Of a DNA stretch of 51,643 bases, positions 6,877 through 16,866 are shown one piece after another. The translations under genes were made by a program, and so were the position numbers. Every line of letters begins with the position of its first letter. The first letter of the stretch is position 1. Source of the DNA: Gemmatales bacterium (lineage in GTDB: Bacteria; Planctomycetota; Planctomycetia; Gemmatales; Gemmataceae); the NCBI GenBank assembly GCA_038247725.1, contig JBBRUO010000001.1, forward strand, positions 1 through 51,643, given 5' to 3'. The notes under the pieces are model-generated. The model searched no databases, was not told the origin of the DNA, and worked only from the letters and a program-made list of their open reading frames with translations.

Positions 6877-8310
6877 TCACTTCGTCGCGATCTTGTCGAA
6901 CAGGGCGAACACGTCGGCCAGCGCCTCGCGGACGATGACCAGGTGTTCGATCCCGTCGTACTCCGTGAACGTCACCCGCTTCGCCCCGGAATCGGTCAGC
7001 GCCTTGCTCAACGACTTCGCACCGGCGCGGGCGAAGTCGGCGGTGCCGACGCCGACGAACGTGGGCAACTCGGCGAAGGATTTCGCCGTGTCCGCCTTCA
7101 CCCGCCCGCCGCCGCCCAGCGCCGCAACGGCCGCGAACTGGCCGGGGTACTTCTGCGCCGCCTCGATCGTCGCCGACGCGCCCATCGAATGACCGACGAC
7201 GAACACCGCCTTCGGGTCGATGGGGTAGCGCTCGGCGAGTTTGTCCACGATCTCGCCGACGGGGACCGGCGACCCGACGAATCCGAGGCCGAGTCGGGGT
7301 GCGACGAGCAGCCACCCTCGCTTCTCGCACAACTTGACGATGTGCCCGTTGCCGTACCCCTCGAAGAACAGGTTCTCCGACCCACCGGCCCCGTGCAGCG
7401 CCACGACCAGCGGCACCGGCTTCTTGGCGTCCAACCCCTTCGGCACCAGCAGCCGGCAGGCGGTGCGGGACTTCGCCGTCGGCACGCTCAGCCAGAACTG
7501 CCCCGTCCGGTCGGGTGTGAAGTACGGTTTCTTCGCGGCACCGAGCTTCGCCATTTCCTGCGCTTCGGTGAACAGCTTCGCGGCGGGGTAGTCCGTCTCG
7601 AACACCGTGCCCCCCGCGAGGTCTTTCAGCAACTCGACCCGGTCCTTCAGAGTGGCGAGTTCGAGCGAGTCCTTCGCCAACGTTTCCTTACCGGCGTCGA
7701 GCAGTTTGGCGGCGGCCGGGAAACCTTCGGCCGAGCCGGTGATGTGACTCACCGCGACCCGTTTATTTCCCGCGACTCTCGCGGCGATCATCGACTCGAT
7801 CCTCAATTCCACGTCGGTGCGCAGAAGAATATCGGGCACCGGCGGGAGTGGGATCACCACCGACAGCGGCAGTTTCCCCACGGCGACTTCCACCGGCTTC
7901 GTCTGTCCCAGGGTCAGTCGCACCGCCAGCCCCTTCGGCTTGTCCGCCTTCACCGGGTAGAACGCCTGCACTTTCACTGTCAGTTCTTTCGCGCCGCTGT
8001 CGATCACCCGCGTCTCCGGCTCGGCGTACAGGCTATCGGCCCACTGCTGTTCGGCGGTGCGGGGCTTGTCACTGGTCAGTGCGTGGCGGGCGTCGTCGAG
8101 TGTCCGGCCGGCCTCGCCCAACTGGAACGAGAAGAACTGGTTCGTCACCTTCGGGACGATCTTCAGCGCCCGCTTCTTGCCGGCGTCGTCGGCCGTTTCC
8201 CACGCCGCTTCGAATTGGCGGAGTCGCTGGCCGAGTTCGTACCGCGCCGTCTGGGCGAACGCGGGCGACAGGAGGGCGAGTAGCGCGAACAACGCGAGGG
8301 GGAATCGCAT
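6877..8310 (-). CDS. Secreted alpha/beta-hydrolase (carboxylesterase / PHB-depolymerase-like) with N-terminal extra domain
   Basis: The start is trimmed to the ATG at 8308..8310 (signal peptide MRFPLALFALLALLSPAFAQ). The nucleophile elbow is VVGHSMGAS (GxSxG). ALHGAGGSE and a C-terminal ...EYDGIEH... are consistent with a Ser-Asp-His fold. Confidence 0.8.
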   Translation of the reverse strand: MRFPLALFALLALLSPAFAQTARYELGQRLRQFEAAWETADDAGKKRALKIVPKVTNQFFSFQLGEAGRTLDDARHALTSDKPRTAEQQWADSLYAEPETRVIDSGAKELTVKVQAFYPVKADKPKGLAVRLTLGQTKPVEVAVGKLPLSVVIPLPPVPDILLRTDVELRIESMIAARVAGNKRVAVSHITGSAEGFPAAAKLLDAGKETLAKDSLELATLKDRVELLKDLAGGTVFETDYPAAKLFTEAQEMAKLGAAKKPYFTPDRTGQFWLSVPTAKSRTACRLLVPKGLDAKKPVPLVVALHGAGGSENLFFEGYGNGHIVKLCEKRGWLLVAPRLGLGFVGSPVPVGEIVDKLAERYPIDPKAVFVVGHSMGASATIEAAQKYPGQFAAVAALGGGGRVKADTAKSFAELPTFVGVGTADFARAGAKSLSKALTDSGAKRVTFTEYDGIEHLVIVREALADVFALFDKIATK

Positions 8311-8450: not shown

Positions 8451-8948
8451 ATGTCCATGTTCATCGGCGAAGCGCTGGTCGGCGACGGCAACGAGATCGC
8501 GCACATCGACCTGCTCATCGGCGAGAAGACCGGCCCCGTCGGCACGGCCTTCGCCAACGCCCTGGCCACCCAGAGCCAGGGGCACAGCAGCCTGCTGGCG
8601 GTGATCGCCCCGAACCTGATCTGCAAGCCGGCCACGGTGATGATCACGAAGGTGACGATCAAGGGGGCCAAGCAGGCGGTCCAGATGTTCGGGCCGGCCC
8701 AGGCCGCCGTCGCCCGCGCCGTCGCCGACAGCGTCGCCGAGGGGGTCATCCCGAAGGACAAGGCGGACGAGTACGTGATCGTGTGCGGGGTGTTCATCCA
8801 CTGGGCCGCCGCCGACGACAACAAGATCTTCGAGTACAACTACGAGGCCACCAAGATGGCCATCAAGTCCGCCATGGCCGGCACCCCGAAGATCGACGAC
8901 ATCCTGGCCACGAAGGACACTGTCAAGCACCCGTTCAGCCCGAAGTAA
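8451..8948 (+). CDS. fae: Formaldehyde-activating enzyme (5,6,7,8-tetrahydromethanopterin hydro-lyase)
   Basis: 165 aa. Near-continuous identity blocks match the Fae sequence as I remember it: GEALVGDGNE-AHIDL-IG, LLAVIAPNL-CKP, KVTI..A.QAVQMFGPAQ, VAEG-IP, GVFIHW-AADD-KI-.YNYEATK and a C-terminal HPF. GGAGA lies upstream of the ATG. The upstream part of ORF 7848..8948 is shadow frame. Confidence 0.95.
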   Translation: MSMFIGEALVGDGNEIAHIDLLIGEKTGPVGTAFANALATQSQGHSSLLAVIAPNLICKPATVMITKVTIKGAKQAVQMFGPAQAAVARAVADSVAEGVIPKDKADEYVIVCGVFIHWAAADDNKIFEYNYEATKMAIKSAMAGTPKIDDILATKDTVKHPFSPK

Positions 8949-8958
8949 CCGGCCATCA

Positions 8959-8996
8959 AGCGGAGAGCGGGCCAACTCCGCTCACCGCTCTCCGCT
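8959..8996 (+). promoter_or_regulatory. Intercistronic stem-loop between fae and mtd
   Basis: AGCGGAGAGCGG (8959..8970) is the exact reverse complement of CCGCTCTCCGCT (8985..8996), giving a 12-bp stem and a 14-nt loop. No T-tract follows. Confidence 0.5.
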
Positions 8997-9016
8997 CATC
9001 CTCAGAGCTTCCAGAA

Positions 9017-9889
9017 ATGGAAAAGCCTTCCGTCCTCTTGCAACTGGACACCGACCCGCACCCCAGCGTCTTCGACCGGGTGGTCGCGGTCGATGCCGGG
9101 GTGCAACATATCTTCAGCTACGGCGGTGTCACGCCGGAGAACGTCAAGCCGCTGGTGCAGGGGTGCATCTTCACCCGCGGCCATGCGGACCTGAAGCGCA
9201 CCGCCATTTTCGTCGGCGGGTCGGACCTGGCAGCGGGGGAAGCCCTGTTCGACGCGGTGCAAAAGCTGCTGATTCCCGAATACAAACTGACCGTCTCCGT
9301 CATGCTGGACAGCAACGGGGCGAATACCACGGCGGCGGCGGCCGTTCGCGCGGCCGCCCGACACCTGGATTTGAGCCGGACCAAATCGCTCGTCCTCGGC
9401 GGCACCGGGCCGGTGGGTCAGCGGGTGGCGCGGCTGCTGGCCAAGCACGGCGGCCACGTCCGCATCGGCAGCCGGCAGAAGGAGCGGGCCGAGGCGGTGT
9501 GCGCCGGCCTGCGGAACATTTACCCGAACGCCGCGCTGGAAGCCGTCGCCACCGCCACCAGCGCCGACGGACCGGCGGCCCTCGACGGCCGGGAACTGGT
9601 GGTCGCGGCCGGGGCCGGTGGCGTCGTGCTGCTGCCGAAGAAGCACCGCGACACCTGCAAGACGCTGGAAGTGATGATCGACCTGAACGGCGAACCGCCG
9701 GCGGGCATTGAGGGCGTCGAGCCGTTCGACAAGGGCACCACCAAGGATGGCGTCATCGCCTACGGGTCGGCCGGCGTCGGCGGCACCAAGATGCGGACCC
9801 ACCGCGCCGCCATCGCCGAGTTATTCACCCGCAGCGACGCCGAGTTCGACATCGACGAGATTTACGACATCGCCCAGAAGCAGGCGTGA
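9017..9889 (+). CDS. NAD(P)-dependent methylene-tetrahydromethanopterin dehydrogenase (MtdA/MtdB/MtdC family)
   Basis: 290 aa from the ATG at 9017. It aligns along its length with MtdA as remembered: L-.DTD..PSVFD, AIFVGG.D.AAGE, MLDSNG.NTTAAA, L.GTGPVG.R, and a C-terminal EIY..A.. ending. It lies immediately downstream of fae. Confidence 0.9.
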   Translation: MEKPSVLLQLDTDPHPSVFDRVVAVDAGVQHIFSYGGVTPENVKPLVQGCIFTRGHADLKRTAIFVGGSDLAAGEALFDAVQKLLIPEYKLTVSVMLDSNGANTTAAAAVRAAARHLDLSRTKSLVLGGTGPVGQRVARLLAKHGGHVRIGSRQKERAEAVCAGLRNIYPNAALEAVATATSADGPAALDGRELVVAAGAGGVVLLPKKHRDTCKTLEVMIDLNGEPPAGIEGVEPFDKGTTKDGVIAYGSAGVGGTKMRTHRAAIAELFTRSDAEFDIDEIYDIAQKQA

Positions 9890-13484: not shown

Positions 13485-14123
13485 TCACTTCAGCTCGACA
13501 TTCCAGTAGGCGCTGTCCAGGAAGGACGACCACGTCCGGTACTTCTTCTGGCTCAACTTCATGTTCAGCGCCGGGCTGCGCTTCGGCTTCTCCGGCTTGC
13601 GGATGAGCGTCATGTTCGCCTGCCGGGGGGTGCGGCCGCCCTTGCGGACGTTACACCCGACGCACGCGCACACGATGTTCTCCCACGTCGTCCCGCCCCC
13701 CTGGCTGCGGGGGATGACGTGGTCCAGGCTCAGCTCGCTGGTGACGTGCTTCCGCCCGCAGTACTGGCACTGGTTGTTGTCGCGGGCGAAAATGTTCCGG
13801 CGGTTGAACTTCACCGTCTGGCGGGGCACCTTGTCGTACTCCAGCAGGCGGATGACGCGGGGGGCCTGGATCTCCAGGCCGGGCGTGCGGACCCAGTCGT
13901 CCTCTTCCTCGCGGAAGTTGGCCGCCCGGAACGCGCTCAGTTCGGCCCACGACTCGAAGTCGTAGGACAGGAACTGTCCCTCCTCGACGCTGACGACTTC
14001 GGCCTGGCCCTTGCACAGCAGGCAGAAGGCGCGGCGGACGCCGATCACGTGGACGGCCATGAACATCTTGTTCAGGACCAGCACGCTGGAGTCCAGTGGG
14101 GTGTAATTGGTGGCCGGAGTCAT
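13485..14123 (-). CDS. HNH endonuclease family protein
   Basis: 212 aa. The HNH/zinc-finger core is CQYCGRK...LSLDHVIPRSQGGGTTWENIVCACVGCNVRKGGR. Confidence 0.85.
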   Translation of the reverse strand: MTPATNYTPLDSSVLVLNKMFMAVHVIGVRRAFCLLCKGQAEVVSVEEGQFLSYDFESWAELSAFRAANFREEEDDWVRTPGLEIQAPRVIRLLEYDKVPRQTVKFNRRNIFARDNNQCQYCGRKHVTSELSLDHVIPRSQGGGTTWENIVCACVGCNVRKGGRTPRQANMTLIRKPEKPKRSPALNMKLSQKKYRTWSSFLDSAYWNVELK

Positions 14124-14460
14124 GGCGGCAAAAGACCTCCCGTAAACGACGACGAACCGGCCGGCCGGTCGGGGCCAGAGCCGGTTCGTCGGAGAAGACG
14201 CGCCAGGGGTATTGGAGGTTCATTCACAATGCCCATCATACTCCGGCGGAAAAACCGCACGCAAGGGGCTGGCCTGAACATTTCGTTCTTCCTCATCGAA
14301 AACTCACATGATTCGGGACGGGCCGAATCGCCCCGGAACCGCTGCCAGATGGTTGCGGCCCGCGCCGTCTTCGGCTACTGTCATCCTCACCGCCGGAGGA
14401 ATTCGGCGGGACGCCGCCGGCCGGTCGGCCGGACCCCAAGTTCATCTCGAGGAGGTTCCC

Positions 14461-15813
14461 GTGGTCACGCGGAAGGCGCTCCCCTGGCTCGTGCTGCTGC
14501 TGGCTCTGCCAGCCGCGCGCGGGCAGGACGAGCCGAAGAAAGACGACAAGCCGCCGCCGACGGCGAAGGAGCAGTTCACCGCGCTCGTCAAGGACCACGC
14601 TGCTGAACGGCAGAAGATGGTCACCGAAATCGGCAAGCTGAAGGGTGACGAGCGGTCGGAGTTGCTTCAGAAGTACTTCGGCCTGGGCAAGGAGTACGCC
14701 GTGAAGGTGTACCAGTTGGCCGAGGACCACCCGACCGACCCCGTCGCCGCCGACGCGGTGTTCTGGGTGCTGGCGAACGGGGCCGGTTCGACGGTGAGCC
14801 AGAAGGCCGAGGCGAAGGTCGCCGCTCTGGTCGCCGACTTGAAGCCGGCGGAACTGAAAGCGCGGCTCGGGGCGATCCGCGCGATGTCGCCCGCCCTCCT
14901 GGACGCGGTGCTGAAGCGGGCGGACACGGCCGAGGGCGACGCCGCCGCCGATCTGCTCGCGTGGGTCGCCTCCGCCAGGGGGTCGTTCGCACCGGGCAGC
15001 ATGCCGAAGAGCGTGGCCGCCGCCACCGACCGGTTGTTGGAGAAGTACCCGAACAATCCCGCCGTGGCGCGGATCGTGTCGGGTCTGGCGCGGGGCGGGG
15101 CCGCCGACGCGAAGGTCTTGGCGAAACTCGCTGACACCGCGACCGACCCGAAGTTGAAGGCCGAGGCCACCCTGGCCCTGGGGCAGAATCTGGTCGCCCA
15201 GGTGGACGCCCTCGGCGACAAGCCGGCGGAGTTGGCGAAAGTCGCCGCCGAGGCCGAGAAGACCTTGGCGTCGGCCGTGGCACTGCTCGCCAAAGCGGAT
15301 CTGGCCGCGCAGAAGGAGACGGCCGAGCGGGTGTTGACCGCCTTCCGCACCCTGCGAGTCGGGAAGGAAGCGCCGGACATCAAGGGGGCCGACCTGGACG
15401 GGAAGGAGTTCAAACTGACCGACTACCGGGGCAAAGTGGTCCTCCTCGACTTCTGGGGGGACTGGTGACCGCCTTGTCGGGCCATGTACCCGCACGAGCG
15501 GTCGCTCGTGAAGACTCTGGCGGATAAGCCGTTTGCCCTGGTCGGTGTGAACTCGGATCGGGATCTAGACGCGCTGAAGCCGGTGCTGAAGGACGAAAAC
15601 ATCTCGTGGCGGTCGTTCTGGAACGGGCCGATGGGGACCGGTGGGCCGATCTCCAAGACGTGGAATGTCCGCGCCTGGCCGACGCTGTTCCTGATCGACC
15701 ACAAGGGGGTCATCCGGCACAAGTTCGAGGGCAGCCCCGGCGACGAGAAGTTGGACAAGTACATCGAGAAGTTGGTGGCCGAGGCCGAGAAGGACGCGAA
15801 GGGCGGCAAGTGA
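14461..15813 (+). CDS. Exported TlpA-like thiol:disulfide oxidoreductase, candidate selenoprotein (in-frame UGA at 15466..15468 read as Sec)
   Basis: A GTG start at 14461 lies 5 nt after GGAGG and gives the signal peptide [21 protein letters not shown]. ORFs 14308..15468 and 15484..15813 are in the same frame and separated only by a TGA. The read-through junction [28 protein letters not shown] reconstitutes one complete thioredoxin fold with the TGA at the first Cys of WCxxC. Confidence 0.7.
15493..15510 (+). promoter_or_regulatory. SECIS-like hairpin downstream of the in-frame UGA
   Basis: CACGAGC-GGTC-GCTCGTG forms a perfect 7-bp stem with a 4-nt GGUC loop. The stem starts 24 nt after the UGA and the loop starts 31 nt after it. 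CCGCC (15469..15473) and GGCGG (15519..15523) could form a lower stem. Confidence 0.5.
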
Positions 15814-15876
15814 CGCCCCCGGCCGGCGCGGACGACCCGCGCCGGCCGCTTCATTTCGTCATCGGAAACCCACCTC

Positions 15877-16866
15877 ATGCGATTTCCACTCCTCGCGCTC
15901 GCCGGGTTGCTCGTCGGGGTCGCACTCGCGGCCGACCCGCCGCCTCCGGTGCCGAACGACACGTTGCCCAACCCGCTCGCGCTCGACACCGTCCCGCTGG
16001 GCCTGAGCAAACGCACGGTGCCGGCCGACAACCCGCTCACCGCCGACCGCGTGGCGCTGGGTCGGAAACTGTTCTTCGACCCGATCCTCTCCGCGAACAA
16101 GACGGTCGCCTGCGCGACCTGCCACCGGCCCGAGTTGGGGTTCGCCGGCCTCGGGGGGAGGGCGAAAGGCATCCACGGTAAGGAAGGCACTCGCCGCGCG
16201 CCGACGCTGCTCAACCGCGGGTTCGGCACGGCCTTCTTCTGGGACGGGCGGGCGAACTCGCTTGAGGAACAGGCGCTGGAACCGATCGCGAACCCGGTCG
16301 AGATGGGGTCCACGGTGGCCGACGCATTGGCCAAACTGAAAGCCGACGCCGACTACCCGAAGCAGTTCGCGGCGGCGTTCGACAACGGGCTGACGGCCGC
16401 CAACCTGGGCAAGGCGCTGGCCGGGTTCGAGCGAACGCTGGTCCGGGGCGACAGCCCGGTGGACCGCTTCCGCCACAACAGCGACCACGACGCATTGACC
16501 GCGACTGAGCGGCACGGGCTGTGGCTGTACGAGAGCAAGGCGGCCTGTTGGAAGTGCCACGGCGGCGGCAACTTCACCGACGACGGGTTCCGCAACACCG
16601 GCGTCGGCTGGGGCCAGGCAGACCTCGGCCGGTTTGCCGTGACCAAGACCGACGCCGACAAGGGGAAATACAAGACGCCGACACTGCGGGGGGTGAAACT
16701 CCGGCCGCCGTACATGCACGACGGCAGCCTGGACACGCTGGAAGCGGTGGTCGAGTTCTACGACCGAGGCGGCGGCAAGAACCCGCGCCTCGACCCGCTC
16801 GTGAAACCGCTCGCCCTGACCGCCGACGAGAAGCGGGCGCTGGTGGCGTTCCTGAAGGCGTTGTGA
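15877..16866 (+). CDS. Di-haem cytochrome c peroxidase (CCP/MauG family)
   Basis: 329 aa with a signal peptide and two CxxCH haem-binding motifs (CATCH and CWKCH). Family blocks FFWDGRA, LEEQA..P and TPTLRGV....PYMHDGS are present. Confidence 0.9.

Follow-up and report, generated by a model that had tools for sequence, protein, structure and literature searches.

Selenoproteins are well established among the thiol-disulfide oxidoreductases of the thioredoxin fold. Two TlpA-like (cd02966) families in which selenocysteine (Sec, U) forms a UxxC motif have been described, the 'Thiol-disulfide isomerase-like protein' of the Sargasso Sea (PMC1088965) and the 'Thiol:disulfide interchange protein' (PMC1794560), and both are listed in a 2026 review (PMC13188914). 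Here we describe a gene from a Gemmatales bacterium (GCA_038247725.1) in which the codon for the first Cys of such a motif is replaced by an in-frame TGA. The gene lies in a 51,643-nucleotide (nt) stretch of contig JBBRUO010000001.1 (67% G+C), which is referred to as a whole as the window. An earlier note on this DNA had proposed an unannotated selenoprotein at this site, and the proposal was supported by conservation of the TGA, by the pairing of Sec and Cys forms, by constraint on a downstream hairpin, and by the fit of this hairpin to the bacterial model of the Sec insertion sequence (SECIS). We consider it very probable (roughly 0.9) that the UGA at 15466-15468 is a Sec codon served by a functional SECIS. 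Because selenoproteins of this fold are well established, the gene is of a known kind; Sec-for-Cys replacement in TlpA-like redoxins is already known and will hardly surprise a specialist, and the window gene is a new, uncurated example of it.

The window family resembles the Zhang/Gladyshev UxxC families in its thioredoxin fold, in the use of Sec for the first Cys of CxxC, in a nearby downstream SECIS, and in the wide occurrence of Cys homologues. It differs from them in an extra helical N-terminal domain of ~270 amino acids (aa), in the motif FWGxW-U-[GP]-P-C, in its spread across Planctomycetota, and in a near-invariant SECIS sequence. Those families were defined on a handful of marine and deltaproteobacterial sequences, and by description one of them may be the same as the window family. 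The NCBIfam entry NF041054 ('ResA-like WAxxUGC') is a curated family too, of ResA/TlpA-like selenoproteins whose redox motif contains Sec, but the window protein scored 32.5 bits against its cutoff of 300, carries FWGDW-U-PPC instead of WAxxUGC with its UxC spacing, and has another architecture. In planctomycete strain P1, split 'thiol-disulfide isomerase-like thioredoxin' selenoprotein candidates have been listed (Kim et al., 2016; PMC4807772, Table S9). Like the window gene, they consist of two adjacent annotated genes, are thioredoxin-like, and have Cys in the closest database homologue; they are supplementary-table entries without family-level analysis and only possibly belong to the same family. 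ResA, CcmG/DsbE, and TlpA (PDB IDs: 4nmu, 1st9, 3k8n, and 1jfu) share with the window protein the fold, the position of the active site, a genomic link to a c-type cytochrome, and, if the probable signal peptide is functional, the extracytoplasmic location, whereas the window protein has predicted Sec in place of the nucleophilic Cys and a large additional helical domain.

Conservation of the in-frame TGA

In the window, the open reading frame (ORF) 14308..15468 closes at the TGA of 15466-15468, and the same frame runs on to a second TGA at 15814-15816. The layout of two same-frame ORFs split by a TGA was therefore as the earlier note had described, with the frame open to the second terminator. 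The start of the first ORF at ATG 14308 did not stand: the likely start is GTG 14461, which is preceded by GAGGAGG and agrees with the 335-aa database gene call (P0001) and with the N-termini of orthologues. The predicted N-terminus resembles a Sec-pathway signal peptide that, judged by eye, is kept in orthologues.

The query for the database search was the read-through protein with Cys in the place of Sec, and we considered the best 120 cluster representatives, which were 45-64% identical to the query. Among these, 114 were gene calls of 250-373 aa that stopped exactly at the ...DFWGxW column. This termination at the same column, together with the 335-aa call in the window itself, bore out the expectation that gene callers split or truncate the gene.

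To follow the codon at this column, 80 loci from species-representative genomes were collected in addition to the window, and the thioredoxin domain was aligned by tblastn, yielding 95 homologous domains. The sample comprised Gemmataceae, Pirellulaceae, Planctomycetaceae, Mariniblastus, a few Verrucomicrobiota, and two oddly labelled metagenome-assembled genomes (MAGs). The first-Cys column held TGA in 89 domains, TGC in three, and TGT, GGC, and TGG in one each; TAA and TAG did not occur. In the 88 other TGA copies, the alignments crossed the TGA in frame at 55-76% identity over ~150 aa. Downstream of the UGA, entropy in the alignment of TGA copies was low at codon positions 1 and 2 and high at position 3, and the downstream part is therefore under protein-coding selection.

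The UGA aligned to the first Cys of the WCKPC motif of ResA. Two full-length homologues of the same architecture (P0002 and P0006) carried TGT or TGC at this column, with the motif WCGPC or RCGPC, and four Cys paralogues with TGC or TGT were present among the 80 loci. The placement of the UGA at the first Cys of a WCxxC motif thus agreed with both ResA and the Cys-form homologues, and inspection of the orthologous column, which the earlier note had recommended, returned predominantly TGA alongside Cys codons.

The base call itself was examined in independent data. Two Logan assemblies, built independently from other sequencing runs, reproduce the TGA context base for base over 161 nt. Two more show the same split, so that the 335-aa truncated product is present in four Logan assemblies altogether. 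A base-call error is thereby excluded. Reassignment of UGA was considered and rejected, because TGA is an ordinary stop here: it terminates 26 of 31 heuristically chosen ORFs of the window, including this gene at its own terminator. No other gene read through a TGA was found in the window, where long extensions past TGA proved to be adjacent same-frame genes.

Several minor observations concern the same column. Two TGA-containing copies lie within 0.6-3.3 kb of each other in nine loci (L002, L006, L009, L011, L015, L044, L059, L071, and L073). Some database proteins, such as P0024, P0086, and P0116, start (MYPHERSLV...) at a Met that closely follows an unrecognized UGA; they continue into another TlpA-like domain, which either has Cys or has lost both redox residues (FQGNRYSPGRDM). 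The two oddly labelled records are titled 'Akkermansia muciniphila' MAG (L037) and 'uncultured Bacteroidales' MAG (L056); both carry the planctomycete-type family, which points to either mis-binning or horizontal transfer.

The hairpin downstream of the UGA

A perfect hairpin, CACGAGC-GGUC-GCUCGUG, occupies 15493-15510 in the window with its loop starting 31 nt after the UGA (spacer 15469 to 15499), as had been claimed. The 7-bp (base pair) stem of that claim is perfect in the window, but only six of its seven pairs are conserved. Consensus folding by RNAalifold gave the 6-bp stem with its GGUC loop as the sole structure, starting 25 nt after the UGA, and the seventh pair, C15493-G15510, lengthens it in the window. 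Folded alone, the 7-bp form reached -10.5 kcal/mol (z = -4.0 relative to shuffled sequences), and the 6-bp core -7.9 kcal/mol.

The 16-nt sequence ACGAGCGGTCGCTCGT, which encodes (H)ERSLV, was essentially the same in all 89 TGA copies. The 12 central nt were identical in every copy, as was the GGUC loop; the outer two pairs held in 87, and the only departures were three single-base changes, all in the two outermost pairs. Among 88 unique sequences, the codons CAC GAG CGG TCG CTC showed a synonymous entropy of ~0. Arg, Ser, and Leu each used one of six available codons, and a single CAT for the His was the lone synonymous change, while equally invariant residues elsewhere (Leu -17, Ser -16, and Gly +26, relative to the UGA) used all synonymous codons. 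At every degenerate site of the stem, only the base that pairs was seen, and the second loop G, also at a degenerate position, did not vary either; the third position of the Val codon, the would-be seventh pair, was free to vary.

The hairpin was kept in 89 of 89 TGA copies versus one of eight non-TGA copies. The corresponding 18 nt of close Cys-form homologues were CACCAGCGUUCGCUUGUG and CACCAACGGUCGCUCGUG, with energies of -4.5 and -1.4 kcal/mol as against -10.5 kcal/mol in the window. Neither the window nor the 80 loci contained the core at any other place. The conservation of the hairpin in TGA forms and its degradation in Cys forms favour the interpretation of the earlier note; base-pair covariation is taken up below.

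We compared the hairpin with the bacterial SECIS model as recently summarized (PMC13188914), which asks for an upper stem of 4-16 bp capped by a loop of 3-9 nt, a G at loop position 1 or 2 (usually as G[G/U]), a UGA-to-loop distance of 16-37 nt, and a minimum free energy (MFE) of -7.5 kcal/mol or lower. In the window hairpin, the tetraloop GGUC begins with GG and caps a conserved stem of 6 bp (7 bp in the window); the distance is 31 nt, and the energy is -7.9 (6-bp core) to -10.5 (7-bp window form) kcal/mol, in agreement with the published model on all four counts. A comparable element is the SECIS of Escherichia coli fdhF, which in the E. coli genome record reads UGA CAC GGC CCA UCG GUU GCA GGUC UGC ACC. 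Both are hairpins within the coding sequence 3' of the UGA, and their apical tetraloops are identical (GGUC, fdhF positions 22-25). The conserved positions of the E. coli element are G23, U24, and the bulged U17, of which U17 and G23 are contacted by SelB (PMC8659212).

Other folds of the region were also considered. An outer closure between CCGCC (15469-73) and GGCGG (15519-23), proposed in the earlier note, was discarded: the bases are present in the window, but they paired in only 39% of cells, and covariation was no better than in shifted controls. The single-sequence MFE fold of 15460-15530, with a long stem running from the UGA, was likewise set aside, as its central pairs occurred only in 33 of 88 sequences, the 'PPC' variants. 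A possible weak mini-hairpin 5' of the conserved stem (Table 1) formed in 116 of 125 UxxC sequences with a mean of -3.3 kcal/mol, which lends it weak support in the subfamily of the window. Separately, GGUGA (15464-15468), which contains the UGA, is complementary to UCGCU (15502-15506) in the 3' part of the hairpin in 88 of 88 unique sequences. Such an alternative pairing would sequester the UGA; conservation is uninformative in this respect because all bases involved are invariant.

Proposed decoding as selenocysteine and alternative readings

The sequences show the anatomy of the gene, the conserved TGA and the conserved frame behind it, the constraint on the hairpin at the RNA level, and its agreement with the SECIS model; from these we infer the following course of selenium insertion, SelB binding, export, and substrate choice. 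The region 14461-15816 is one gene, which would encode an exported thiol-disulfide oxidoreductase of ~450 residues, consisting of a signal peptide, a helical domain, and a TlpA/ResA-type fold, with the active site Sec-Pro-Pro-Cys and the UGA decoded as Sec instead of stop. The hairpin ACGAGC-GGUC-GCUCGU would act as the SECIS, with SelB, carrying Sec-tRNA(Sec) and GTP, presumably binding the GGUC apical loop and delivering Sec once the UGA enters the A site of the ribosome. Outside the cytoplasm, the mature protein would serve as a selenol/thiol reductant. ResA and CcmG reduce the haem-binding cysteines of apocytochromes; by this analogy, the likely clients of the reductant would be c-type cytochromes, whether the di-haem cytochrome c peroxidase encoded next to it or others.

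A number of results weigh against Sec insertion at this UGA. The window contained neither a tRNA nor a homologue of SelA, SelB, or SelD in searches with ARAGORN and with tblastn using the E. coli proteins. Apart from one tRNA-Sec, at locus L056, no sel genes turned up in the DNA around related loci (~1.7 Mb), in a search that covered the 80 genomic loci and another 126. Rfam gave no match at the gathering threshold for the whole window, and in E-value mode (E up to 10) only chance-level matches for 15430-15560. For the possibly related genes of strain P1, bSECISearch had returned 'no SECIS' (PMC4807772, Table S9). In comparison with fdhF, the window stem is perfect and lacks the bulged U17; it begins 25 nt after the UGA and its loop 31 nt after it, rather than 11 and 18 nt, and thus lies 14 nt further away, and there is no conserved lower stem reaching back to the UGA. 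The hairpin showed no base-pair covariation; this test is uninformative because the stem hardly varies, and synonymous-site entropy and the contrast between Sec and Cys forms were used in its place. Finally, the single non-TGA copy that retains the hairpin (L003) has GGC at the Sec column.

The L003 copy (L003:8710) is decayed: GGC replaces the TGA and Trp the resolving Cys (W-G-G-P-W-R), with the hairpin sequence still intact. A paralogue that was recently inactivated, or put to another use, may account for this.

On the side of Sec decoding, the evidence for the machinery is indirect: selA, selB, selC, and selD have been listed for Gemmata obscuriglobus, Isosphaera pallida, and two other planctomycetes (PMC4807772, Table S8). 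The tRNA-Sec of L056 was detected by ARAGORN and by Rfam RF01852 (72 bits) and lies 1.6 kb upstream of a member of the family. The only other match of the machinery search, across the window and the 80 and 126 loci, was a spurious GTPase.

At L056, the tRNA-Sec (7249-7346) is directly followed by a small ORF with a signal peptide and an in-frame TGA at 7612-7614 in the context C-L-V-[TGA] (CxxU). Its frame continues to 8005-8007, and the ORF sits just upstream of the TlpA-like family member. The fold downstream of this TGA was not significant (z = -0.34). The ORF may be a second selenoprotein gene.

The alternative that survives best, and to which we nevertheless give only a slim chance, is that the UGA is read through without Sec, a near-cognate or suppressor tRNA inserting Cys, Trp, or another residue and the hairpin acting as a general stimulator of read-through. 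Selenium insertion is itself something we infer, Sec machinery was missing from the window and flanks apart from the one tRNA-Sec, and the hairpin has neither the bulged U nor the 11-nt spacing of E. coli, all of which this account would accommodate. It leaves aside that the UGA stands exactly at the redox Cys that is exchanged for Cys codons in homologues, the classic Sec/Cys signature, and that the hairpin agrees with the bacterial SECIS model in every respect listed above and shares the loop of fdhF. A tRNA-Sec adjoins the family member of L056, and Sec machinery is documented in Gemmataceae. Moreover, if Cys were inserted, there would be no evident reason to maintain a costly UGA and hairpin throughout the phylum in preference to TGC.

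Less probable still is a true stop, under which translation would restart at ATG 15484 and the two products, of 335 aa (N-terminal) and 109 aa, would form a split or termination-regulated pair. Gene callers annotate the locus in this way everywhere, and the ATG at codon +6 is invariant. Termination here would, however, cut the thioredoxin fold through its active site, and only TGA is used (89 of 89 genomic copies and 122 of 122 among the metagenomic matches listed), never TAA or TAG. The 15-nt gap between the two ORFs codes for a conserved [GP]-P-C-R-A that includes the resolving Cys, and no ribosome-binding site is apparent within it. Cys-form homologues that are contiguous share the invariant Met (CRSMFP), and the freeze of synonymous sites in the hairpin would be left unexplained. 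A pseudogene, or a sequencing or assembly error for TGC or TGT, could produce such a picture by a single-base change in one isolated sequence, but the same TGA in the Logan assemblies, in 88 other genomic copies, and in at least 122 metagenomic copies, with the downstream coding constraint maintained and TGA otherwise an ordinary stop, practically excludes error, pseudogene, and reassigned code alike.

Metagenomic relatives, protein domains, and gene neighbours

To survey the family beyond the genomes, metagenome contigs were scanned for TGA-N25-ACGAGCGGTCGCTCGT, which recovered at least 120 stretches from soil, marine, and freshwater samples (loci L090-L209). The pattern gave 90 genomic and at least 122 metagenomic matches, each within the protein family of the window. 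All 122 metagenomic sites among the matches listed stood in a TlpA-like context, and at least 83 were of the U-x-x-C type. The other 39 of the 122 listed belonged to a sister subfamily, U-x-x-U, with a second in-frame TGA at the column of the resolving Cys (for example, L105, L107, L111, and L121). These sequences share the motif ...FWSEY-U-L-T-U-RAxWPHERSLV..., in which the two TGA codons are 9 nt apart; the second stop was TGA in 39 of 39 listed cases, the same SECIS hairpin was present, and the thioredoxin frame was intact downstream.

The U-x-x-U sequences carried an additional hairpin, GGGCC-NNNU-GGCCC, spanning nt +13 to +27 after the first UGA and directly 5' of the SECIS hairpin. It was found in 36 of 36 sequences with a mean of -7.9 kcal/mol. 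Where the codon whose third base is paired encodes Ala, it was GCC in 30 of 30 cases; in the U-x-x-C group, the equivalent base lies in the loop and varies freely. U-x-x-U is probably a diselenide active site served by a single SECIS.

These data raise a wider proposal, to which we would assign clearly less than even odds: that a very large, uncurated family of exported selenoproteins extends across Planctomycetota, its U-x-x-C and U-x-x-U (likely diselenide) members sharing a near-invariant 16-nt SECIS, with one SECIS serving two UGAs 9 nt apart; that the lineage of the window uses it with a di-haem cytochrome c peroxidase as a selenium-dependent extracytoplasmic redox module; and that recognition of the SECIS by SelB is unusually sequence-specific in this phylum. 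The family points to the use of selenium by Planctomycetota, Gemmataceae of soil and water among them, for thiol-disulfide chemistry outside the cytoplasm. A SECIS frozen at each degenerate position throughout the phylum, and apparently serving two UGAs in the sister group, is a convenient natural model for work on how SelB recognizes its target and how much variation in spacing is tolerated. In hundreds of public records, the gene is called as a truncated 'hypothetical protein' and a small thioredoxin-like fragment, and among the NCBIfam and Rfam models tested none captures the protein or its SECIS. These annotations could be repaired with the help of TGA-N25-ACGAGCGGTCGCTCGT, a marker both simple and specific.

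The features of the locus are collected in Table 1.

Table 1. Positions of the gene, its RNA elements, and its likely operon partner in the window.
Feature	Position	Strand	Basis or remark
Full selenoprotein coding sequence (predicted)	14461..15816	+	GTG start, in-frame UGA, TGA terminator; 450 codons plus stop
Shine-Dalgarno-like GAGGAGG	14449..14455	+	Read from sequence; 5 nt upstream of GTG start
Probable signal peptide, cleavage before QDE	14461..14523	+	By inspection: basic N-terminus, hydrophobic core, AxA-like site
N-terminal all-alpha domain, ~270 aa	14548..15345	+	AlphaFold2 model of P0002: 13 helices, predicted local distance difference test (pLDDT) above 90
TlpA/ResA/DsbE-like thioredoxin-fold domain	15346..15813	+	Pfam AhpC-TSA, Redoxin, Thioredoxin_8
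Predicted selenocysteine codon UGA	15466..15468	+	First position of U-P-P-C redox motif
Resolving Cys TGT of UxxC	15475..15477	+	Column is Cys in 99% of TGA copies
Possible weak 5' mini-hairpin CGGG-CCAUGUA-CCCG	15478..15492	+	GGG 15479-81 with CCC 15489-91; 85% of cells paired, two compensatory cases
Conserved SECIS core (candidate)	15494..15509	+	6-bp stem ACGAGC/GCUCGU, GGUC tetraloop 15500-15503; RNAalifold consensus
Di-haem cytochrome c peroxidase gene (CCP_MauG)	15877..16866	+	Pfam PF03150, E = 2e-54; 61 nt past stop

Structural information was taken from the AlphaFold2 model of the Cys-form homologue P0002 in place of the read-through protein; its thioredoxin part is of modest confidence, since the majority of sequences in the underlying alignment end at the UGA. 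A fold search with the Cys-form model gave TM-scores of 0.65-0.72 to ResA, DsbE, and CcmG. The C-terminal domain matched Pfam PF00578 and PF08534 above cutoff and, in the PDB, ResA (4nmu, E = 1e-19), TlpA (1jfu), and CcmG, its nearest relatives of solved structure. The protein scored below the cutoffs of the nearest NCBIfam models, those for ResA (NF002854; 81.5 vs. 170), TlpA (NF047696; 61.5 vs. 230), and DsbE (TIGR00385; 53.3 vs. 123), and is therefore a relative rather than an orthologue or member of these families. For the N-terminal helical domain, the search of the PDB with the P0002 model returned no informative match; in some homologues, this part has a precomputed match to the HEAT-like PF13646.

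The peroxidase gene downstream is a likely operon partner. The same adjacency was found in the closest orthologues (L001, L002, L005, L010, L053, and L079) and in Logan assemblies, and in L088 no CCP_MauG gene stood beside the Cys-form homologue. A divergent gene for an HNH endonuclease, at 13485-14123 on the reverse strand, lies just upstream of the predicted selenoprotein gene, and further upstream in the window, 8783-9889 encodes a protein with the N-terminal domain of methylene-tetrahydromethanopterin dehydrogenase, an enzyme of one-carbon metabolism.

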